NCBI GenBank assembly: GCA_963770565.1
Contig: CAVYQE010000002.1
Location: 768,001-832,000 of the forward strand
DNA from: an uncultured Actinomycetota bacterium
Lineage (GTDB): Bacteria > Actinomycetota > Actinomycetes > JAFAQI01
Length of the DNA stretch: 64,000 bases
Direction: 5' to 3'
Made by a program: the position numbers and the translations under genes. The notes below the pieces were generated by a model that was not told the origin of the DNA, searched no databases, and saw only the letters and a program-made list of their open reading frames with translations. Of the stretch, positions 15,143-24,648 are shown piece by piece; within the stretch, counting starts at the first letter, position 1, and the number at the start of each line of letters is the position of its first letter.

Positions 15143-15340
15143 GGTGCTCCTTTGGTTGCTGAGGCGGTGGTGAACCACCTTGATCGATGGTTCAAACATT
15201 TTTGCACGGCCTCGCGTGCGCACGAGGAAACAACCAACATTGGATTACTGCACGGCGGCGCGCTCAGGTCGCTTGCCGACACACCTGCGCGGCCAACCTA
15301 CGGCACCCTGATCTAGGCCGCTGACCGGCAACTTCGGTTT

Positions 15341-15388
15341 GTGGAGACGAGGGGAATCGAACCCCTAACCTCCGCCTTGCAAAGGCGG
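15341..15388 (-). repeat. att core: displaced 3' half of tRNA-Ala(TGC)
   Basis: GTGGAGACGAGGGGAATCGAACCCCTAACCTCCGCCTTGCAAAGGCGG identical to 24486-24533. Confidence 0.95.
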
Positions 15389-15468
15389 TGCGACTCGAAA
15401 ATCGCGGACGGTAAAACCGCAGGTCGTGCCCACAATTTGAGCGGCTTCAAGATCACGAGAATCGCCCG

Positions 15469-15488
15469 CGTGCCACGCCTGTGCCACA
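15469..15488 (+). repeat. Putative integrase arm-type sites (GTGCCAC x2)
   Basis: CGTGCCAC 15469-15476 and TGTGCCACA 15480-15488 match the repeats at 24349-24387. Confidence 0.7.
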
Positions 15489-15576
15489 TCGTCACGGGCA
15501 ACAACGGCAATCCGAGGGGCCCAACGGTCGTCCCCAGCCTGCCTCGGCTCGCCATCGCCGAAGGAGCCGAGTGACT

Positions 15577-15620
15577 GCTTCCCAAGCTGACAGTGCGGGT
15601 TCGATTCCCGTCGCCCGCTC
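15577..15620 (+). pseudogene. 3' half of a tRNA-Gly(CCC) (att-core-like fragment)
   Basis: GCTTCCCAAGCTGACAGTGCGGGTTCGATTCCCGTCGCCCGCTC: CCC anticodon loop, T-arm GCGGG-TTCGATT-CCCGT, acceptor 3' strand; no 5' half upstream. Confidence 0.85.
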
Positions 15621-15714
15621 TCCTCTTCTACCAGGTAAAACCGCAGGTCAGGCCGTTTTCCGGCTCCGAAAACCTCGACAAGCTTGACCGCGAATACCCG
15701 TGATTTACCGGGTT

Positions 15715-15745
15715 GGGCCACAAGATGTGGCCCAGATGTGGCCCA
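15715..15745. repeat. TGTGGCCCA repeats (second arm-type set)
   Basis: TGGGCCACAAGATGTGGCCCAGATGTGGCCCA: one inverted and two direct copies. Confidence 0.65.
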
Positions 15746-15880
15746 ATGATCTTGGTCTCACGTCGATGGACCGCGCGCCGAGAAAGTGGGCGCCGCCGAC
15801 CCCCGTCGCCCCGCAAGCACGGGCGCCGCACTCGTCACACAAGCCGGACCCGAAATCGGGATCCGCATCGTCGCAGTCGG

Positions 15881-16975
15881 TCAGGTCTCGCTGATCAACA
15901 CGCGCTCGTGGGTGTGGTCTGTGACCAGCACGATCTCGCGATCCCATCCGGTCACGACCTTGCCTCGAGTGAGGATTAGGCCTCCGAGTCCGGAGAGTCC
16001 ACCGGTGTCGAAGGGACCCTTCGCAGTCCGAAGAGTGTTGTGCCGCGAGAGTGTGAACAGTTCATGGTGTTGGCATGGCGTACTCGTTGACAGCCAGGCA
16101 AGCGAATTGCCCATCACACCGACCACGCCGTCACAACGCGGCCGTGTCGCGATGATCAGATGCCCTCCGGTGGTGAAGAGGCGCAGAAAACGGTGCACGG
16201 TCCTTCCCTCGACCGAGCACGCGATGTATTTCGTGGTCACGTTCGGGCAAGAGGTGACATGGGACCGGTTGACGGGAACGAATCGACGAAAGACGCCAGG
16301 TCGCTCGAACTTCATAACGACAGCGGACCCGTTGTTGTTGCCCTCGATATCGTTGTACACGACGAGCGCGGTTGAACTGGTGCGGAGCGTCAGGATGTGG
16401 CTGCCGCGGCCAGCTGGCTCGGGCGCGCCGAGGTTCGTCGACTTGCCCTTGGTCGTCTGCAGGTAGAGGAGATCGGGCTTGTCGGTCTCATGCTTCTGGA
16501 TAATCCAACCGTTCGGTGCCGCGGCAACCAGGTCCGTAGTGTTGCTGGTCCCGCCGCCGGCCAGTGATGGCTTGTCAGCGACGCGTCCATGAGCCCCAGT
16601 GTGTAGGTTTCGCCACGACAATGTCCCCGGCGTGTCGCCAGCTCCGAAGTAGATTGCCATCGCGCCAGCCAGATAGGCCCAAGACGTCGCCACATGGCTG
16701 CGCGTTGTGAGCAGATGCGGTTCGCCGTGCGCGGTCCGATAGTAGATCCCGCCAGTTCGTGCGGGCCTTCCGTCGGCCTTCTCCGCAGCGCGGGCGTATA
16801 TCAGGTAGCGCGCCGACGCAGCCAAAGGCATCACCATGTGGTGCGGGGTCTTCGTTGCCAAGTGCTGCGTGCTAACGCGCAAGTTGCTCGATGCCGCCCA
16901 CCCGGAGGTAGCGACGGGTGCCACGAGCAGCCCCGATGCGGCGAGCGTCGCGCCCAAACCTGTCGACCAATTCAT
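15881..16975 (-). CDS. Secreted hypothetical protein (cargo)
   Basis: Likely start MNWSTGLGATLAASGLLVAPVATSGWAA (signal peptide) at 16975; beta-rich, basic, several Cys; non-host codon usage. Confidence 0.65.
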   Translation of the reverse strand: MNWSTGLGATLAASGLLVAPVATSGWAASSNLRVSTQHLATKTPHHMVMPLAASARYLIYARAAEKADGRPARTGGIYYRTAHGEPHLLTTRSHVATSWAYLAGAMAIYFGAGDTPGTLSWRNLHTGAHGRVADKPSLAGGGTSNTTDLVAAAPNGWIIQKHETDKPDLLYLQTTKGKSTNLGAPEPAGRGSHILTLRTSSTALVVYNDIEGNNNGSAVVMKFERPGVFRRFVPVNRSHVTSCPNVTTKYIACSVEGRTVHRFLRLFTTGGHLIIATRPRCDGVVGVMGNSLAWLSTSTPCQHHELFTLSRHNTLRTAKGPFDTGGLSGLGGLILTRGKVVTGWDREIVLVTDHTHERVLISET

Positions 16976-17489
16976 ACTTCCCCAACGTACGCTGCGGTGC
17001 GGCCGTTGACACGCCCAGTAGAAGATCTGCCAATGCTTCGATGCCGATCTCAGTTCGTGAGGGCGGCGCGTCGGCGTCAGGTTCGTTCCGGGAGTAGGTC
17101 GTCGGAACCGCCCGGACCCCTGGCTCGAGAGTCTGACGCCTTGCGCCGGGGGTCGCCCGGGGGCCAAGGCGCCTGATGACAACGCCGGCTCAACGCGCGT
17201 AACGTACTCACTTCGGGACAGGCTTGGACGGGTCATGCGACGCCGGAGGAACGCGAATCGCACAGCACTTACCTTCGTGGCCTTCGAGTGGGCCGGTCCG
17301 GGACTGATGCCCGAGGTCGATGTGATCGACGTTGAGACGACGCCCAATCCCGCCGCTCCGGCTAGAAATGCACCCCGTGATGCGCGGGTTTCCGATGTGG
17401 TTGGCCGCCGTTGCCCACATCGGGTGCGAACGCTCCCTGTCCGATTCATCGCGATTATCCGCCCTTTCCGATTTCGACTGGAGCAAGTC

Positions 17490-18401
17490 ATGACGGTGCC
17501 ATCTGGAGCAGCTCTGATCGATGTAGCAAACTCGAGCGCTCTCATCCAGACCAACATTTCAGTTTATACGGCTAATCGAAATCCACAGTCACTCGTCATA
17601 TCCCCATACAACGGCGACCTATACATGATGCAGGTCGATGAGAGCAACAACCACGGCGACATCACACTTAACCGATACATCAAGAGTTCGGGGCAATGGA
17701 CGTTCAATGCATTCATGCACCTTCACGAATTTGGTCATGGTGTCGTGTTCGGCATCTGGTACAAGACGTCCACATCGACCCAGCACTTTTTCTCCGAAGC
17801 CGAAGCCGGTTCGAACGGTCGAGGTCAGAAACTGACAAACTTCATATATTCAGCCGGTGAACAGCTGGATAATACCGGAATAGACACCTACGACCCGGGG
17901 CTTGGCAGCGACTATTCATGCGTCGTCGACCCGACGAACACTTACATCGCGGTTCGATACAAGACCAGTGACGGCACGTGGCACTATCAGGCGTACTACG
18001 TGGCCGACTTCATGGATGCAAACTACAGTTCGCCGCTCGTCGGTTCAGGCGGTCTGGACGAGGTCCCAGACGACGACAGCGCCGGTACCGGCGGTGACAT
18101 TTCATTCCAAGGATGGACCGTGGTTGGCCATTACCTTTATACCATTTCACAGACAAACACAGCAACGCCCGACTATCCGGTAAACACGGTTCGAATTAGA
18201 TCGTACGACATGAACCATTCGCAAAACGGATCGGGCGGATATATCAAGCTTGCCCATCACGGTCACCCATCCCCCGGCGACAGCAATCCGGAGTGGGAGG
18301 GCATCACCTACGGGGATTCCGACTATGCGCTCTACTACATGCTCCGCACAGTCACGAGCGGTGTTCATTACTTTAATCTTCACGCCATCCAACACAACTG
18401 A
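17490..18401 (+). CDS. TagC-like / phage receptor-binding-type beta-propeller protein (cargo)
   Basis: QS..., GDITLNR, MHLHEFGHG..FG, FQGWTVVGHYLY, PEWEGIT motifs recalled from TagC/phage baseplate propellers; GGAG RBS before ATG 17490; low GC. Confidence 0.65.
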   Translation: MTVPSGAALIDVANSSALIQTNISVYTANRNPQSLVISPYNGDLYMMQVDESNNHGDITLNRYIKSSGQWTFNAFMHLHEFGHGVVFGIWYKTSTSTQHFFSEAEAGSNGRGQKLTNFIYSAGEQLDNTGIDTYDPGLGSDYSCVVDPTNTYIAVRYKTSDGTWHYQAYYVADFMDANYSSPLVGSGGLDEVPDDDSAGTGGDISFQGWTVVGHYLYTISQTNTATPDYPVNTVRIRSYDMNHSQNGSGGYIKLAHHGHPSPGDSNPEWEGITYGDSDYALYYMLRTVTSGVHYFNLHAIQHN

Positions 18402-18479
18402 ACTCAATTTCGTTTCGCAACCGTCCGCACGAGATACCGATTAGCCAGGCACGGTTCAATTCTTATGGTCGGCCTCGCC

Positions 18480-21179
18480 CTAGCGGCTGATGCCGTATCC
18501 GCAGTCTGGTTCGGGTGCGTGTTGCCGGTACGGGTCGCGCTCGCGATCGAGTCCGGTGCCCCGGCGAACCGGGCCGGGCATCCATCGCATCTCGGTTCGG
18601 GTCGGGCGGTGAACGACCGCTGCGTCTGGAAGTCGGGTGTGTGCAGCTGCGGTGTCACCCGTGGTGGCGAGGATCCGCTCGAGCTGGTCGGTCGGGTTGA
18701 TGGGCCGACGCTGCCAATCACGTGGGGTGATCTCGGGGTCGGGTTCGCCGGCAAGGTAGATGTGGTTGGTTTCGCGACCGCGGCTCATCGCGACGTAGAG
18801 CCGGGTCCGGTCCAGCCCGGGTCGGGCGAGGGTCAGCGAGTGGTCGGCGGTGCCGCCTTGAGCGGTGTCGATGGTCGACGCCCACCCGTAGGTCGCATGG
18901 TCGCTCATATAGTCATGCGGCAGGACGGCGAGCTCGGGTCCGTCGAGGCGCTGCACGGTCAGCCCCGCGTCGGTGCGGCCGGTGACGGTGAAGATGTCAC
19001 CGTTGCGCAGATGGTCGGCACCGACCGGGATCCGGCGGTTGTTTCGGGTGACGCGCAGCCGGTCACCGACCCGCCAATCGTGGTCGCCGGCGGTGAGCAG
19101 CGGTTCGCCGCGGACTTCTCCTATAGATATGGCGTGGTGGCGGGCGCGGGTGTTGAGCGCCTCGACGTCGTCGTGGGTGCGGGCGAGCAGCAGCACCCGG
19201 CCGCCCCGCACACTCAGCCGCCGGTAGTGGGTGAGGACCGTGTCGTAGGGGTCAGCGTCTAGCGCGATGGGGTGGACGCGGTCGTGGTCGAGGTAGTCGG
19301 GGATGCAGGCCGGGTTCCCGACCCGCAGCTGCAATGAGGCGGCGCGCTCCCAGACGCGCCCGATGCGGTGCACCACTGCCAGCGACGGCGCGCCGAGCCG
19401 GTTGGCCAGCGCCGGCAGCATGCCGCCGGCGGCGTCGATCGCGGTGATCTGCGCCGGGTCGCCGACCAGCAGCAGCTTCCCGCCCACCGCCGCCACCTGC
19501 CGGGTGATCGCGTGCAGGTCGGCAGTGGCGAGCATCGACGCCTCGTCGACGATCAGCACCCCGCCGCGGCGGAGCCGATAGGCCGGGTCGACCGGCCAGT
19601 GCTGCTGTTCGTGCAGGTACTTCGCGACGGTATCGGCGGCCATCCCGGTCGCAGCATTGAGTTCTCTCGCGGCCCGGGCGGACGGCGCCAACCCCATCAC
19701 CTGACGGCCCGACGCCGCCCAGGCGAGCACGGCCGCCTCGATCGTGGTGGTCTTTCCGGTGCCGGCCGGCGCGACCAGCACACCGAGCTGGTCACCGCTT
19801 CGGGTCAACACGTTCACGGCCGAGGTTTGGGTCGGATCCAACCCGGCCCGCGCGCAGGCATCCCGCACCACTGTGCTCGGGCAGATCGCCGTCCCGCTGC
19901 GACGTCCGGCGTCAGCGAACTCGAGAATCTCAAGCTCCTCGCCAAGCGTGGCCGCGGAGGCGTAACGGGCGTCGGAACTGCGGACCGGGCCATCCCGCTC
20001 CGGTGTGAGAGTCACCGCTTCACTGGTTCGCAGCGCGTCGTCGGTGAGCCGCTCCACCCAGTCCCGAACAGCGTCAGCTTTCAGTCCGGCGGCGGGGAGG
20101 CGGGCTGCGACCTCGACCGCCAGATCCGACCGGCTGAACACCGCCCTGCGGGCACCGGCCGCCATCACCGCCTCGATCAGTAGCCCGTCGATGTCCGACT
20201 GGTCGAACCGAGCGTGATCGCCCACCGCCATATCGACCGCATCCCGAAGCCGGTGCGGGGTCCAGCCCAGTGCAGCGGCTTCGGCATGCCAACGCTCAGT
20301 CAGGCTGATGATGTCCACCTGCTCCTTGTCCGGCCGGGTCTTGATCACCGCGACCTTCACCACCGCGGTGCGTTCCGCGGAGGTCAGCGGCCGGCCCAGC
20401 TCCGCCTCATACGCCGCGATCACCGGCTCGGCGTCAGCCAGCGTCTGCGCGGTGCGGGCCGACCAGCGTGTCATCAGCCCGGTCGGGACACCGGCGATCT
20501 CGGCCTGCCCGTCCTTGCTCACCTCGGTCCAGCCGACGCCGAGCCGGCGAGTCAGCTCAGCACGCAGCGCGGCCTGGTAGATCGCGCCGGCGGACTTCTT
20601 GTGGGCGTAGACCTCATGGCCGTCCACCGTCCGCCAGCCGCCGTCGGCGCATGCGAGCTTGTTCAGCACCAGCGCGTGCGTGTGCAGCTGCGGATCACCC
20701 GCCCGTGACGTGCGGTGGTCGAATACCGCCGCCGCAAACCCTTCCGTGTCGACCTGAGTCAGCCCGTCCCGGCCAACCCGCGAGAACGCAGCGTGAGTGT
20801 CCAGGTAGTCCAACCCGGCCCGCACCGCCGCCGCATGCGCAGCCGTCACCAGCGCAGCGACATCGCCACCGCCCAGCGCCCACAACGTGGACACCGACTT
20901 CGGGGCGGAGAAGCACAGGTCGTAGCCAGTCACCCCGTCCGAGCGCCACCCCCGCCCCAGCTGGAACCGACCGACCGGATGCAGCGCCCGGCCGAACGTC
21001 GCCTCCAACTGCCACTCCCGCACGTGGCCGCCGACATCGAGACCTAGCTGTACAACACCCCGGCCGTACCAACGTCCCGGTGCCTCACCGACACCAAGGA
21101 AGTACTCACACGCCCCGTGCCCGACCTGGTTCGCGTAGTAGCGCCACGACCCGCACCGGATCTTCGCCGTCGACAACAT
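18480..21179 (-). CDS. MobF (TrwC-type) relaxase fused to RecD-like SF1B helicase
   Basis: RYY...EY..GEAPGRW, YDLCFSAPKSVS, HRTSRAGDPQLHTH (HUH), APAGTGKTT, VDEASM, VGDPAQ, YVAMSRGR. Confidence 0.93.
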   Translation of the reverse strand: MLSTAKIRCGSWRYYANQVGHGACEYFLGVGEAPGRWYGRGVVQLGLDVGGHVREWQLEATFGRALHPVGRFQLGRGWRSDGVTGYDLCFSAPKSVSTLWALGGGDVAALVTAAHAAAVRAGLDYLDTHAAFSRVGRDGLTQVDTEGFAAAVFDHRTSRAGDPQLHTHALVLNKLACADGGWRTVDGHEVYAHKKSAGAIYQAALRAELTRRLGVGWTEVSKDGQAEIAGVPTGLMTRWSARTAQTLADAEPVIAAYEAELGRPLTSAERTAVVKVAVIKTRPDKEQVDIISLTERWHAEAAALGWTPHRLRDAVDMAVGDHARFDQSDIDGLLIEAVMAAGARRAVFSRSDLAVEVAARLPAAGLKADAVRDWVERLTDDALRTSEAVTLTPERDGPVRSSDARYASAATLGEELEILEFADAGRRSGTAICPSTVVRDACARAGLDPTQTSAVNVLTRSGDQLGVLVAPAGTGKTTTIEAAVLAWAASGRQVMGLAPSARAARELNAATGMAADTVAKYLHEQQHWPVDPAYRLRRGGVLIVDEASMLATADLHAITRQVAAVGGKLLLVGDPAQITAIDAAGGMLPALANRLGAPSLAVVHRIGRVWERAASLQLRVGNPACIPDYLDHDRVHPIALDADPYDTVLTHYRRLSVRGGRVLLLARTHDDVEALNTRARHHAISIGEVRGEPLLTAGDHDWRVGDRLRVTRNNRRIPVGADHLRNGDIFTVTGRTDAGLTVQRLDGPELAVLPHDYMSDHATYGWASTIDTAQGGTADHSLTLARPGLDRTRLYVAMSRGRETNHIYLAGEPDPEITPRDWQRRPINPTDQLERILATTGDTAAAHTRLPDAAVVHRPTRTEMRWMPGPVRRGTGLDRERDPYRQHAPEPDCGYGISR

Positions 21180-21399
21180 GAGCCGCACCGTACGCATCCC
21201 CGATGCACATGTCTGCCGGGATTGTGGGGCGGGGGTTGAAGGTCGGAGAGTGGGAGCGGATGCGACGGAAAGTGCTGGTAACTAAAGGATTCTGGCGGTC
21301 GGCAGAGGTGCTGTTGGCGTGGTCGGACCGGACGAGTTGAGAAATTTGCGCGCGGTCGGGCGTGTCGTGGGCTCGATTCCCCGGCGGCGCGCCGTCTTG

Positions 21400-21807
21400 C
21401 TACGGGTGGAGGGTGAAGGCGTCGATGTGCTGCGGCTTGACCACGGTGAAGTGCCGGTGGTCCAGGGTCGCGATGTCCGTCTCGCCGAATCGTTCGGCCA
21501 ACGCGATCACGGTCGCGTCGGTCGTCCCGAGCCCGAGGTCGGCGTAGGTGTCGACCAGGTCCGCGGCGCGGAGCAGGTCGACGGTCGTCGGCGACTCGAC
21601 CTGGTACCGGTCGGTCGTCAACGATCGCAGGAACGCAGACTCGACTGCGGCCCCGAGTTCGCGAGCGATCAGGTAGGCGGTCTCGGCGATCACTAGCGCC
21701 GCCACGATCGCCGTACCGGTCAAGGTCTCCAGCAGGAGGCGCGAGGCTTCGTGATCCGGGTCATCGCGGTTTGCGGCCGCGACGAACACGCCGGTGTCGA
21801 CGATCAC
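21400..21807 (-). CDS. vapC: VapC PIN-domain toxin
   Basis: IVDTGVF, IAETAY, TDATVIALAE, TLDHRHF acidic PIN tetrad. Confidence 0.9.
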   Translation of the reverse strand: MIVDTGVFVAAANRDDPDHEASRLLLETLTGTAIVAALVIAETAYLIARELGAAVESAFLRSLTTDRYQVESPTTVDLLRAADLVDTYADLGLGTTDATVIALAERFGETDIATLDHRHFTVVKPQHIDAFTLHP

Positions 21808-22022
21808 TACTCGCGACCGAAACCCTCAGCCAGGTGCTCGTCGACGTCGCGTCCGCGCAGTCGGGTTGACGACCCGGCGCCCACAAACTCATATGGGTCC
21901 TGCGCCAACAGACGAAGCACCGCGTCCTTCGCCAGATCCTCTGGGCTGACACCCGCTCGCTCTGCTCGTTCCCTAAGCCGCGACAGTGTCGCGTCGTCGA
22001 GATCGAGGTGCATCGCGGTCAT
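21807..22022 (-). CDS. vapB: VapB-like ribbon-helix-helix antitoxin
   Basis: 71 aa, MTAMHLDLDDATLSRLRERAERAGVSPEDL; stop overlaps vapC start. Confidence 0.8.
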   Translation of the reverse strand: MTAMHLDLDDATLSRLRERAERAGVSPEDLAKDAVLRLLAQDPYEFVGAGSSTRLRGRDVDEHLAEGFGRE

Positions 22023-22056
22023 GGTCAAAGTGTAGGTCCGAGCGTGTCTACCGTCT

Positions 22057-22761
22057 CTACCTGCGATCCCGCTTGGTCCTCGCAACCGTCTTCTTTGCTG
22101 GGCGGAGCATGTACTCCGAGTCGTTGGCCTTCTCCGCGACATAGCCGCGGATCCCGACCTGGCGGAGGTGGTCGAAGAAGCGGCCCATCTCCTCCGCGGC
22201 CTGGTCGAGCCGGTCGGCGTGGGAGTCGAGCATCGCGAGCAGCAGCTCTTTGCGGCGGGTTGGGTAGTCCAGCAGCGTCCGTTCCGTCGGGCCGCCGTAG
22301 ACCCTTTCGAGGACGAGGTCGGACTCGTCGGGCTCGACGTGCCCGAGCTCGGCGAACCGCTCCCGCAGGTACTCGAGCTGGTCGTTGCGGCCCATCGCGA
22401 GCAGGTACAGCTCGTTCACCCGGTCCCCGGTGCCTTGCAGGTTGCGGTGGTCCCCCGGCGGTGGGATGAAGAACCACACCAAGGGCAGGTCGAACCCGCA
22501 CGCGAACGCGAGCAGCTCCTGCGCGTCGAACTCCCGGCGTTTCGCACCGCCGTAGGCGCCCTCGATCCCGGAGACCGCGGCCTGCTTCAGCCGGACGCCG
22601 AGGAACGGGGCGAGCCGGTCCGCGGCCTCGTCCTGGGTCAGACCCCGGAGCTCACGAGCGCGGCGGAAGTTGTAGGCGACGATCTCGTTGAGGTTCACCC
22701 CGTCCCGGGTCGGCCGTGCCAGTCCGTCCTGGTCGGTCTCAGTACGTCTGCCGCGTGCCAC
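22057..22761 (-). CDS. XRE-family HTH repressor of the element
   Basis: NFRRARELRGLTQDEAADRL...VSGIE HTH; divergent from xis-int. Confidence 0.8.
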   Translation of the reverse strand: MARGRRTETDQDGLARPTRDGVNLNEIVAYNFRRARELRGLTQDEAADRLAPFLGVRLKQAAVSGIEGAYGGAKRREFDAQELLAFACGFDLPLVWFFIPPPGDHRNLQGTGDRVNELYLLAMGRNDQLEYLRERFAELGHVEPDESDLVLERVYGGPTERTLLDYPTRRKELLLAMLDSHADRLDQAAEEMGRFFDHLRQVGIRGYVAEKANDSEYMLRPAKKTVARTKRDRR

Positions 22762-22781
22762 CAGAGCAACCTACACCCGCC

Positions 22782-22852
22782 GCAAGTGATACAGCGACTT
22801 GCCACGGTCGATATTCGGCGTATGGTCACAGGCAATACCTGCATTGCTTGCC
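22782..22852. promoter_or_regulatory. Divergent xre/xis control region with GCAA-N12/13-TTGC inverted repeats (putative operators)
   Basis: GCAAGT 22782-22787/ACTTGC 22797-22802; GGCAA 22831-22835/TTGCC 22848-22852. Confidence 0.45.
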
Positions 22853-22887
22853 GGTGATGTCCGGCAGCCGGCTGGAAGGAGCCTGCC

Positions 22888-23103
22888 GTGTCCCTGCTGA
22901 CCGTCGACGAAGCCGCTGAGCGGCTGTCCACCAAGCCCCGGTTCATCCGCCGGCTGATCGCCGAAAAGCGGATTCCGTACGTCAAGCTCGGCAGCCACGT
23001 CCGAATCGACAGCACGGACCTCGATGCGTTTATCGCCGCCGGACGGGTTCAGCCACCGGCTCGACAGCTCAGCCTCGGTTATCCACAACCTGCCCGTCGG
23101 TAG
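22888..23103 (+). CDS. xis: Excisionase (HTH_17 family)
   Basis: LLTVDEAAERL...IRRLIAEKRIPYVKLGSHVRI; GAAGGAG RBS; upstream of int. Confidence 0.88.
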   Translation: MSLLTVDEAAERLSTKPRFIRRLIAEKRIPYVKLGSHVRIDSTDLDAFIAAGRVQPPARQLSLGYPQPARR

Positions 23104-23142
23104 CCCACTGCTGTCGGCTCCCCGCCTTCACTGAACGTTGTC

Positions 23143-24303
23143 ATGACCAGACGGGACTTCGGAAGCGTCCGCCGGCTGCCCAGCGGCCGCTGGCAGGCCC
23201 GCTTCCGCGATCCGACCGGTCACCTTCACACCAAGACATTCGTCACTCGCGGCGACGCCTCCCGATTCCTAGCCAACGCCCGGGTCGACATCAGCCGAGG
23301 CGACTGGTTCGATCCGACCAGCGGCCAGCAGCGCCTCGAGGACTTCGCGACATCGTGGATCTCGACCCGCAGGGTCCGTGGGCGTCCGATCACACCGCGG
23401 ACCCGCGAGCGCTACGAGAGCATCCTTCGCACCCACATCACCCCAGCACTCGGCCCTGTGGCGCTTCGCGACCTCGACCCGGCGCGGGTGCGGCGCTGGT
23501 ACGCGGCATTAGACAGCCAGGACAAGCCCGGGCCGGCGACAGTCGCGAAGTGCTACAGGCTGCTGCACGCGATCTGCAATACCGCCGTCGTCGAAGGTGA
23601 GATTCCACGCAACCCGTGCCTGATCCCGGGTGCAAGCGCCGAAGGTAGTCCCGAGCGACCGATCGCGACGCTCGCGCAGGTCTACGCCCTCGCCGATGCG
23701 GTCGGCGCCAGATGGCGGGCGATGGTGCTGCTCGCGACCTTCTGCGGGCTGCGCTTCGGGGAGCTCGCCGCGCTGACCCGTGAGCGGCTCGATCTGGTCC
23801 ACGCGACCGTGACGATCACCGAGGACCTTGACGAGATCGGCGGCCGGCTCCAGCGCGGTGACGTCAAGTCCGCGGCCAGCCGCCGCAGCGTCGCAATCCC
23901 CGCCGTGATCTTGCCCGACCTCCAAACGCACCTGACCAGCTACGCCGAGCCAGGGCCACGCGGCCTGGTCTTCGTCGGCACCCGCGGCGGGCAGTTGCGG
24001 CGCGGCAACTTCCGGCGCTCGGTCTGGCAGCCCGCCGCCGACGCGGTTGGGGTCCCCGGGCTGCGCTTTCACGACCTGCGCCACACCGGAAACACCCTCG
24101 CCGCAGCCACCGGCGCCAGCACCCGCGAGCTGATGGTCCGGATGGGACATGCCAGCAGCCGAGCCGCGCTGATCTACCAACACGCCACTCGCGACCGCGA
24201 CGCCGCGATCGCCGCCGCGCTGAGCGATCTGGTCACCGGTGCCCGCAGCACCGACCGCCCGGGCGCGGTCCCGATCCTGCGCAAGGCCGCCGAGGCCGAG
24301 TAG
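23143..24303 (+). CDS. int: Tyrosine recombinase/integrase
   Basis: FGSVRRLPSGRWQARF arm-binding N-terminus; GLRFGEL (R), K, HDLRHT (HxxR), MGH, LIYQH (Y). Confidence 0.95.
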   Translation: MTRRDFGSVRRLPSGRWQARFRDPTGHLHTKTFVTRGDASRFLANARVDISRGDWFDPTSGQQRLEDFATSWISTRRVRGRPITPRTRERYESILRTHITPALGPVALRDLDPARVRRWYAALDSQDKPGPATVAKCYRLLHAICNTAVVEGEIPRNPCLIPGASAEGSPERPIATLAQVYALADAVGARWRAMVLLATFCGLRFGELAALTRERLDLVHATVTITEDLDEIGGRLQRGDVKSAASRRSVAIPAVILPDLQTHLTSYAEPGPRGLVFVGTRGGQLRRGNFRRSVWQPAADAVGVPGLRFHDLRHTGNTLAAATGASTRELMVRMGHASSRAALIYQHATRDRDAAIAAALSDLVTGARSTDRPGAVPILRKAAEAE

Positions 24304-24348
24304 TTCGCCCTCTCGGGACGACCTTGCAATCTTGAAAAGCCATGATCA

Positions 24349-24387
24349 CGTGCCATTCGCGTGCCACAACGTGCCACAACGTGCCAC
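24349..24387 (+). repeat. Integrase arm-type repeats CGTGCCA x4
   Basis: Copies at 24349, 24360, 24370, 24380 (10-11 bp period) between int and tRNA-Ala. Confidence 0.8.
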
Positions 24388-24483
24388 TAGAAACGGACAT
24401 TAGAGGACACCCGCGGGGTGCCTCGGTGATCATCGGTCAGTAGGCCCACAGGCCGCTGAACTGCCATTTTATCTGATTTTCGG

Positions 24484-24559
24484 TGGTGGAGACGAGGGGA
24501 ATCGAACCCCTAACCTCCGCCTTGCAAAGGCGGCGCTCTGCCAATTGAGCTACGTCCCC
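24484..24559 (-). tRNA. tRNA-Ala(TGC)
   Basis: GGGGACGTAGCTCAATTGGCAGAGCGCCGCCTTTGCAAGGCGGAGGTTAGGGGTTCGATTCCCCTCGTCTCCACCA cloverleaf. Confidence 0.97.
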
Positions 24560-24573
24560 GCGCGGGGAACCGG

Positions 24574-24648
24574 TGGGCCTGGGAGGACTTGAACCTCCGA
24601 CCTCTTCCTTATCAGGGAAGCGCTCTAACCGAGCTGAGCTACAGGCCC
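24574..24648 (-). tRNA. tRNA-Ile(GAT)
   Basis: GGGCCTG/CAGGCCC acceptor stem, CTTCC-CTGATAA-GGAAG anticodon arm, TTCAAGT T-loop. Confidence 0.97.

Follow-up and report, generated by a model that had tools for sequence, protein, structure and literature searches.

Half of a tRNA-Gly(CCC) attachment site adjoins the complete tRNA-Ala attachment site of a chimeric actinomycete integrative element

Within an integrative element that occupies a tRNA-Ala gene of an uncultured actinomycete, we identify with high confidence a 181-nt block (15577-15757) as coming from a Gly(CCC)-type sister element, whose core and integrase-distal arm it represents; the block meets the tRNA-Ala module at the integrase crossover point, and we regard the element that carries it as chimeric. 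The block is probably, though far from certainly, the still-intact by-product of a fusion between a Gly-type and an Ala-type element. Coordinates given without a contig name are those of the window, the whole 64-kb stretch of DNA that was analysed (G000:C2:768001-832000), which comes from a genome of 4.4 Mb with 68-69% GC in 11 contigs.

The element spans 15341-24533 (9.2 kb) and is inserted in tRNA-Ala(TGC). ARAGORN called only two tRNA genes in the window, tRNA-Ala(TGC) at 24484-24559 and tRNA-Ile at 24572-24648, both on the minus strand, and the 3' 48 nt of the intact tRNA-Ala (24486-24533, attL) recur with 100% identity at 15341-15388 (minus strand) as a displaced 3' part covering tRNA positions 27-74 (the attR core), such that the direct repeats flanking the element duplicate the 3' part of its target. 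From the intact tRNA inward, the element encodes a tyrosine integrase of 386 aa, Int(A) (23143-24303, plus strand; PF00589 at 8e-15, PF14659 and PF22022), with a SAM-like N-terminal domain and HxLRH, GH and Y catalytic motifs that align with those of relatives; an excisionase-type HTH gene (xis) directly upstream of int (22888-23103, plus strand; PF12728 HTH_17, 2e-14); a 234-aa backbone gene that is conserved and weakly matches an HTH family (22057-22761, minus strand; HTH_31 at 3e-3); a VapBC toxin-antitoxin pair (21400-22142, minus strand) made up of a PIN toxin (21400-21807; PF01850 2e-16) and a ribbon-helix-helix antitoxin (21807-22142; PF22513 2e-4, under the curated cut-off); and a TrwC-type relaxase with a helicase domain, 905 aa long (18480-21197, minus strand; PF08751 1e-77 and PF13604 2e-49). 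Beyond the relaxase comes a low-GC stretch (17560-18479; 51-55% vs about 68%) with only small ORFs without family, followed by ORF558 (15881-17557, minus strand; 558 aa), the first cargo gene past the Gly arm. ORF558 has no match in Pfam, PADLOC or NCBIfam; its homologues, at 27-40% identity, occur in 5 of 400 other genomes of the class, with the weakest match spanning only 59 residues, and none of those from this class-wide search could be linked to a Gly arm. An Atlas search with ORF558 gave scores of at most 0.81, which are weak leads only. Apart from the relaxase, no scanned ORF of the element matched a coupling protein or type IV secretion family, ORF558 and the small ORFs being without family, and on its sequence we predict 15341-24533 to be an integrative mobilizable element (IME) at a tRNA gene.

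The Ala-type attP of this element has both of its arms. The integrase-proximal arm contains four GTGCCA(C/T) arm-type repeats (24350-24388, plus strand) that lie 95 nt from the tRNA end and core, and the integrase-distal arm contains, 21 nt from the Ala core, the first copy of the GGTAAAACCGCAGGTC motif (15410-15425, plus strand) and then two GTGCCAC arm-type repeats (15470-15487, plus strand), the same motif that is present four times at 24350-24388. Between these repeats and the Gly core is a spacer of 86 nt (15491-15576).

The Gly core (15577-15625, plus strand) consists of positions 29-72 of tRNA-Gly(CCC) (15577-15620) and 5 nt of trailer; a blast of the genome's own tRNAs places the tRNA part at 43/44 identity to the resident gene, and the core with its trailer is 49/49 identical to the tRNA and trailer of the relative G017. 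It is followed after 13 nt by the GGTAAAACCGCAGGTCAGG motif, copy 2 (15634-15652, plus strand), whose CAGGTCA part is kept in all aligned Gly-type arms; the GGTAAAACCGCAGGTC 16-mer accordingly has exact copies at 15410 and 15634. Next comes the integrase-distal arm of a Gly(CCC)-type attP (15684-15757, plus strand), which is built from TTGACCGC, GATTTACCG, three TGTGGCCCA and GATCTTGGTC, the last marking the point where homology to other elements stops (15757) and past which the sequence differs in every element. The 64-kb window holds only these three copies of TGTGGCCCA, at 15714-15722 (minus strand), 15726-15734 (plus strand) and 15737-15745 (plus strand), against 0.44 expected, and three are reached in 0 of 100 shuffles.

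These observations bear out most of what a sequence-only reading of the window had described. That reading had reported a tRNA-Gly(CCC) 3' half 188 nt inside the tRNA-Ala fragment and in opposite orientation, which the blast places at 15577-15620 (plus strand) against 15341-15388 (minus strand) for a different tRNA, and past this core a CGCAGGTCAGG motif (15642-15652) followed by TGTGGCCCA repeats (three copies, 15714-15745), both of which are there. It had further compared the site with the integrase-proximal end of the element, where the repeats are indeed found at their offset of 95 nt, but the true homologue is the distal Ala arm (15410-15487), with which the Gly site has the GGTAAAACCGCAGGTC 16-mer in common.

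Left of the Gly core the sequence is that of the Ala arm. No TGTGGCCCA occurs left of 15577 within the 64-kb window, all three being right of the core, and the proximal arm of a Gly(CCC)-type attP (two TGTGGCCCA about 83 nt upstream of the core) is missing; because of this missing integrase-proximal arm, the site amounts to half an attP rather than a full second one. The stretch that is homologous to the tRNA and to attP sites of the Gly type starts at GC|TTCCCAA in the anticodon loop, and the left half of the anticodon stem reads ACTGC at the window site, in place of the TCAGC of the tRNA and the TCAGC or TTAGC of true Gly-type sites. Repeats are present on both sides, those 86 nt to the left being Ala-type repeats that serve the Ala core too and have another motif type, and those 93 nt to the right being Gly type. 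We considered the Ala repeats as a canonical proximal arm for the Gly core and found this unsupported, as they are of the other motif type and match the N-domain of another integrase.

Attachment sites of the lambda and L5 type that lie at tRNA 3' ends, such as those of pSAM2 and mycobacteriophage L5, have arm-type sites flanking a core that starts in the anticodon arm, and integration cores starting in the anticodon arm are reportedly also part of Williams's 2002 survey of tRNA sublocations. The anatomy seen here resembles such sites in that the core spans the tRNA from its anticodon stem-loop to its 3' end, with direct and inverted repeats roughly 80-100 nt off and int adjoining attP. Sites of the lambda/L5 type are complete and have their cognate integrase in cis, whereas the Gly site of the window has neither the proximal arm nor an integrase: no cognate integrase lies next to it, and Int(A) is the only one in the element. 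Read as a circle, the window element has the order int(A), proximal Ala arm, Ala core, motif, distal Ala arm, 86 nt, Gly core, motif, distal Gly arm and cargo, and a Gly-type element has the order int, proximal arm, Gly core, motif, distal arm and cargo. In effect, int(A) and the whole Ala attP stand where a Gly-type element would have int(G) and the proximal Gly arm, with the break in the crossover region of the Gly core.

The origin of the block is evident from its matches elsewhere in the genome. Searching with 15540-15780 revealed 78% identity between the 181-nt block and C6:7826-8008, a stretch that immediately follows the real tRNA-Gly(CCC) gene (C6:7963-8036), and 77% identity to C2:894754-894938 at a contig end; equivalent arms, which lie behind a full tRNA-Gly in G004 and at a tandem junction in G005, are 73-76% identical, and G023 has the same kind of arm in more diverged form. 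All aligned Gly arms have common blocks (the core, CAGGTCAG, TTGACCGC, GATTTACCG, the three repeats and GATCTTGG) with diverged spacers between them. Since the 181-nt homology is to DNA behind a real tRNA-Gly(CCC), the block must be the core and integrase-distal arm of a sister element, and the suggestion of an attachment-type site for a different integrase finds its support in these bona fide attL arms of tRNA-Gly(CCC)-targeting sisters. The complementary half-site is found at C2:880904-881053, where two TGTGGCCCA (C2:881030-881053) precede an 83-nt spacer and a core, and it lies just downstream of an intact cognate integrase (C2:881760-883022), about 97 kb from the window site. The earlier statement that there is no second integrase therefore applies within the element but not to the genome, in which a full tRNA-Gly(CCC) (C6:7963-8036) and an integrase with TGTGGCCCA arms (C2:881760-883022) can both be located.

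The relaxase, the 234-aa gene and int of the window element have homologues in elements at four further places of the genome, namely C2:881922-885017 (at tRNA-Gly(CCC)), C11:311147-316771 (at tRNA-Gly(TCC)), C11:534871-538665 and C1:963091-967469. Amino-acid identity to these sister elements is 51-59% for the relaxase and 81-88% for the 234-aa gene; at the DNA level, the long matches, which cover the relaxase, int and its upstream stretch, are 67-75% identical, relaxase and int are 67-73% identical to those of the Gly-type elements, and two short stretches are 82-85% identical, one of which (22213-22541) has 85%. Int(A) is 60-61% identical in amino acids to two Gly-targeting integrases of the same genome. 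Arm specificity resides in the N-terminal domain of lambda-type integrases, and the N-domain identities here fit: over the N-terminal 65 residues, the two integrases with TGTGGCCCA (GTGGCCC(A)) arms are 85% identical to each other and only 63% identical to Int(A), on which grounds Int(A) is unlikely to be the cognate arm binder of the TGTGGCCCA repeats. Tandem arrays with chimeric junctions are frequent in this genome and its relatives, as exemplified by C11, on which three Gly(TCC) cores carry two different arm types, by a Gly(CCC) array divided between C6 and the end of C2, and by similar tandem junctions in G005, G010, G015 and G004; because arms and cores are mixed in these arrays, arm type and core type are uncoupled in the element family. 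An element in G033 with TGTGGCACA arms at a Gly(CCC) core has no integrase ORF upstream and was not usable for phylogeny.

In the fusion that we favour, a Gly-type element would have used its tyrosine integrase for a crossover between its own attP core and a site that lay just past the attP of an Ala-type sister, which would have given a cointegrate of the two elements. Recombination between the homologous backbones, or a deletion, would then have removed the second junction together with int(G) and its proximal arm. The element as it stands is a chimera, Ala-specific by its xis, int and complete Ala-type attP, with a Gly core and arm, and at least the adjoining cargo boundary, that come from a Gly(CCC)-targeting relative; in its half-site the Gly core is accompanied by the CAGGTCAGG motif, three putative arm-binding TGTGGCCCA repeats and their flanking blocks. 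Having neither a cognate integrase in cis nor a proximal arm, and with its left core half mismatched, this half-site would be unable alone to direct integration into tRNA-Gly. Its present inactivity and the order of events are what we infer; what we observe are the homology and where it ends, the missing arm, the cognate integrases at other places of the genome and the same pairing in G027.

Several lines of evidence are consistent with this fusion, including a backbone (int, relaxase and 234-aa gene) homologous to that of Gly-type elements, a homology that begins at the anticodon loop and ends at 15757, the presence in the same genome of both the 181-nt match behind a real tRNA-Gly(CCC) and the other half-site (C2:880904-881053), the commonness of tandem accretion with chimeric junctions in this element family, and the position of all three TGTGGCCCA to the right of the core together with an Int(A) N-terminus unlike that of the TGTGGCCCA-arm integrases. 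The break at the integrase crossover point itself points to an integrase-mediated fusion of sister elements that re-assorts integration modules and cargo. Against it, no cointegrate, second junction or int(G) remnant is visible inside the element. From a tandem-accretion junction, in which two elements in tandem at one tRNA have one target core in common, the site differs in that its cores belong to two tRNAs and face opposite directions.

The reservations attached to the earlier reading, namely that the fragment might be misassembled or that relatives never show paired tRNA fragments, were not upheld. It is true that the genome is a draft of 11 contigs in which family repeats break contigs elsewhere, and that C2 ends inside a Gly core, but the site lies mid-contig, 783 kb into an 895-kb contig, and the independent assembly of G027, from another genus, pairs the same cores. 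The site is not a misassembly, and with a 181-nt homology, a 44-nt tRNA match and three clustered 9-mers that go far beyond chance, we give practically no credence to an assembly artefact or chance resemblance as the explanation.

The first of the options raised from the sequence alone was that the excised circle, having two att cores, enters tRNA-Gly(CCC) with the help of an integrase supplied in trans, which here would come from a resident Gly-type element. In its favour are a core with 43/44 identity to the host tRNA, a complete distal arm, cognate integrases encoded elsewhere in the genome, and GTGCCAC repeats that, at 86 nt left of the core, come close to the 83-nt proximal-arm spacing of true Gly-type sites. 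This option is nevertheless the least supported, with one arm only and a mismatched left core half-site. On the proximal side there is no TGTGGCCCA, and the repeats that are present there are Ala type and would be bound, if at all, by a different N-terminal domain. Moreover, the acceptor strand CGCCCGC fits the host tRNA 5' strand GCGGGTG less well than the resident sites do, and no relative was found at tRNA-Gly with an Ala attP inside. We consider use of the site as a second attP to be improbable.

The other two options, a pad through which cargo was captured and the scar of a target switch, both fit the anatomy, that is, the start in the anticodon loop, the Gly-type backbone and the variable sequence past the arm, and comparison with other Ala-type ends bears on both. 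Such ends were sought with a pattern of the Ala anticodon arm followed by the motif, an exact 13-nt motif being required, by which diverged ends are missed. The scan of genome contigs returned one stretch, in G027, and that of metagenome contigs returned three, one of them a true end (L065) and two of them chance matches without tRNA-Ala sequence; with the window, the Ala-type ends known in all are three. The GGTAAAACCGCAGGTC motif and the two GTGCCAC distal repeats are kept in both G027 and L065, and the Gly core is found in two of the three ends (window and G027). L065 stays in step with the window across the arm repeats and for some 45 nt beyond them before it diverges, such that only the first half of the 86-nt spacer resembles it, and it has no Gly core. 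The Gly core is thus not needed for an Ala-type attP, and its absence from one of three Ala-type ends agrees with its arrival by fusion.

G027 carries a 13.4-kb insert at its tRNA-Ile/tRNA-Ala locus, in which only a frameshifted and truncated C-terminal int(A) remnant (73-75% protein identity) is left and no other gene is common with the window; its Ala-type element is a fossil. At the far end of this insert, the Ala fragment, the motif and two arm repeats are followed by a tRNA-Gly(CCC)-like core exactly 86 nt on, as in the window. The 86-nt spacers of the two are identical at 37 of 86 positions (43%; the shuffle mean is 25.0 with an sd of 4.1, and 0.3% of 20,000 shuffles reach 37), and the Gly cores at 37 of 44 (84%). 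In both copies alike only the left stem half is degenerate, and the DNA right of the core is unrelated between them. The two cores also differ in the tRNA that they match: the G027 core agrees with the resident tRNA-Gly(CCC) of G027 at 39 of 44 positions and has its GAG/CTC T-stem, and the window core combines a GGG/CCC T-stem with the acceptor strand (CGCCCGC) and the trailer found in genomes of genus g8, the present host having CACCCGC. A compensatory T-stem pair that matches the host would arise by chance in <1% of cases, by a rough estimate of ours. A G common to both cores at GTCGCC was entertained as a sign of common descent of the scars and dropped, being the normal tRNA-Gly(CCC) state in several genera.

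Set beside these comparisons, the window arm shows no decay. In a leave-one-out comparison across the positions invariant in three bona fide arms, the window retains 111/122 (70/80 outside the core), and the arm behind the real tRNA retains 111/123 (70/82 outside the core). Together, the undecayed arm, the greater conservation of the core (84% vs 43% for the spacer, at the same 86-nt offset in G027) and the host-matched variants argue against a single old neutral scar, and they weigh against the fusion that we favour, as host-clade tRNA variants in each copy would not be expected if the fusion left one such scar. From the host-matched variants it follows that in at least one lineage the core has been renewed to the right of the anticodon loop, as would happen if an integrase recombined it with a local Gly-type attP.

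The same evidence weighs on an in-place target switch, in which a Gly(CCC)-targeting ancestor would have gained a new four-repeat arm, Ala core and motif between int and its old proximal arm, and its old core and distal arm would have been left as a scar. The order of parts is suggestive of this, with int and the Ala attP followed by a Gly core and arm where a Gly-type element has its own core and arm, and Int(A) is 61% identical to Gly-targeting integrases in a family whose arm and core types are uncoupled. However, the distal Gly arm is of the TGTGGCCCA type and not of the Ala GTGCCAC type, which would require that the two arms of the ancestor were of different types, L065 has an Ala-type end without a Gly core, and the host-matched core variants speak against one old event. 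An in-place switch of this kind seems to us unlikely.

The site may instead be used repeatedly. Under this tentative reading, which we hold to be possible but clearly less probable than the fusion by-product, the Gly core is a maintained docking or exchange site, an attB- or attL-like target for Gly-type elements in the same cell. To the extent that it is used, co-resident Gly-type integrases would recombine their own attP with the core, and the Ala module would perhaps gain or swap backbone and cargo (heterospecific accretion). It would suit such a site that two Ala-type modules keep the same 86-nt offset despite spacers that are 43% identical, that their cores carry the tRNA-Gly(CCC) variants of different host clades, as expected if renewed at least once, that degeneracy is limited to the left stem half in both copies, that the DNA right of the core is unrelated between window and G027, that the window arm is undecayed, and that two intact integrases with putative cognate arm-binding domains reside in the same genome. 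On the other hand, only three Ala-type ends are known and one is without the core, the G027 element with its truncated and frameshifted int is a fossil whose core is not in current use, and what looks like renewal could also come from gene conversion or from two recent events independent of each other; the short run contigs contain no recombination product, and none of them bridges the junction. Between the capture pad and the switch scar of the earlier reading the outcome is mixed, with the G027 offset, its host-matched variant and the undecayed arm leaning towards the pad, and the small sample and lack of a product leaving the scar as the safer default.

Integrative elements that are related to each other often occupy different tRNA genes, and the histories of their backbones and integrases are discordant. 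To our knowledge, the physical junctions that produce target switches have rarely been caught, and here such a junction is kept base for base, with the complete attP of one tRNA specificity next to the intact half-attP of a second. The half-site indicates that Gly-type and Ala-type elements once fused there, and they may still trade parts at it. The fusion by-product as we read it would make integrase-mediated fusion a route of re-assortment, in addition to homologous recombination and transposons. A site that is still in use would serve as a natural 'adapter' linking the mobility of elements with different chromosomal targets, and docking, if true, would let modules be shuffled and targets be switched by a site-specific route across tRNA specificities. 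The half-site and two resident integrases, at C2:881760-883022 and C11:310940-312226, form a simple substrate set that can be tested, and for annotators a tRNA fragment inside an island need not mark the boundary of that island.

Composite elements with internal attachment sites are described for streptococcal ICEs, IMEs and CIMEs, which accrete into each other's att sites, form chimeric internal att sites and later undergo deletion, with ICESt1/ICESt3 and the CIMEs of Streptococcus thermophilus and the tRNA-Lys composite of S. agalactiae given as examples (PMC5704250). The fusion proposed here is like the accretion described there, in which the incoming element enters the att site of the resident, the junction has one arm from each, and decay or deletion fuses the modules (PMC5704250). 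In the streptococcal cases as described, the partners share one target and core and the junction is at the element boundary (PMC5704250), whereas the half-site in the window is that of another tRNA (Gly) than the one occupied (Ala) and lies inside the element beside an intact attP. The tripartite ICEs of Mesorhizobium, for instance ICEMcSym1271, have att sites of several specificities, from which their authors infer replacement of recombination systems between related elements (PMC8627217), and the window element is like ICEMcSym1271 in having attachment sites of more than one specificity on one element (PMC8627217). According to the same account, tripartite ICEs encode all three integrases and assemble via complete att pairs (PMC8627217); unlike these, the window element has one integrase and half of a second site. 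What differs here is a half-site of another tRNA specificity that lies beside a complete attP in a small IME and recurs at a fixed offset. A weak search of the literature on second or remnant attP sites returned nothing relevant, and we make no claim of absence from print.

At the locus itself, the tRNA-Ile/tRNA-Ala side is syntenic in 16/16 loci compared, the flank left of 15341 is matched in 0/16, and no exact empty site with both flanks occurs among them. A stretch in G025 (G025:C504) is a second tRNA-Ile/Ala locus and not the end of an element. Four soil-metagenome runs of one study contain 13-26% of the sampled words and are stored as short contigs, none of which bridges 15577 or the Ala junctions or shows a circle junction; the run contigs over 15577-15620 are tRNA-Gly genes of other organisms. 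One run contig of 151 nt covers 15309-15393 and then departs from the window.

Evaluating the organization of these elements, we found that the Ala-type element, a 9.2-kb integrative mobilizable element in tRNA-Ala(TGC) (window 15341-24533), and the Gly-type elements, its sister elements targeting tRNA-Gly, share a common order of proximal arm, core, motif and distal arm despite opposite use of the core. In the Ala-type element, the tRNA core is antiparallel to int, which converges on the intact tRNA (window 23143-24559), whereas in Gly-type elements the core is parallel to int, which adjoins the displaced fragment (compared locus G000:C2:880904-883022).

Within the Ala-type element, an exact 16-nt repeat, GGTAAAACCGCAGGTC, follows both displaced tRNA fragments on the same strand, with one copy 21 nt past the Ala core (15410-15425) and the other 13 nt past the Gly core (15634-15649). 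Other Gly-type arms carry the variants TTTTCGCAGGTC and GAAACAGCAGGTC, and the identity of the two copies inside the Ala-type element may reflect conversion or the binding of both by one element-encoded factor. The cargo adjoining the Gly arm (15881-18479) comprises a 558-aa ORF without a family, whose only relatives are distant and from the same bacterial family, followed by ~0.9 kb at 51-55% GC that holds only small ORFs without assignment.

Elsewhere in the source genome (G000), Gly-type elements form a tandem array at tRNA-Gly(TCC) (G000:C11:303547-320834) that contains the intact gene, three displaced cores and two integrases, with junctions that join GTGGCCC arms to CGTGCCCC/GTCCCCAC arms. 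The resident Gly(CCC) element (G000:C2:881922-885017; locus L032 2911-6289) adjoins an intact integrase and has lost the N-terminal (TrwC) part of its relaxase and most of the 234-aa backbone gene; it resembles a deletion derivative still able to provide integrase. In another genome, G034, a relaxase fragment (locus L017, G034:C143:1023-1710) is 72% identical to window 19512-20197 and lies 47 nt from the tRNA-Ala core. This suggests that another genus also carries a related, now decayed element at this tRNA.

Contig C1 has two orphan half-sites (G000:C1:414079-414123 and C1:436678-436720) separated by 22.6 kb, an interval without a PF00589 integrase match. One has a decayed core resembling tRNA-Gly(CCC), accompanied by a CGCAGGT motif and CGTGCCCG repeats. 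In the other, GGGGACA repeats precede a 3' fragment of tRNA-Lys(TTT), whose gene proper is on contig C6. This pair may represent another chimeric or rearranged island. Separately, C1 carries ten tRNA genes within 1 kb (G000:C1:1157415-1158406; Trp, Pro, Gly, Leu, Gln, Lys, Asn, Arg, His, Arg), several of which duplicate tRNAs located elsewhere, in a cluster resembling a phage or island tRNA array.
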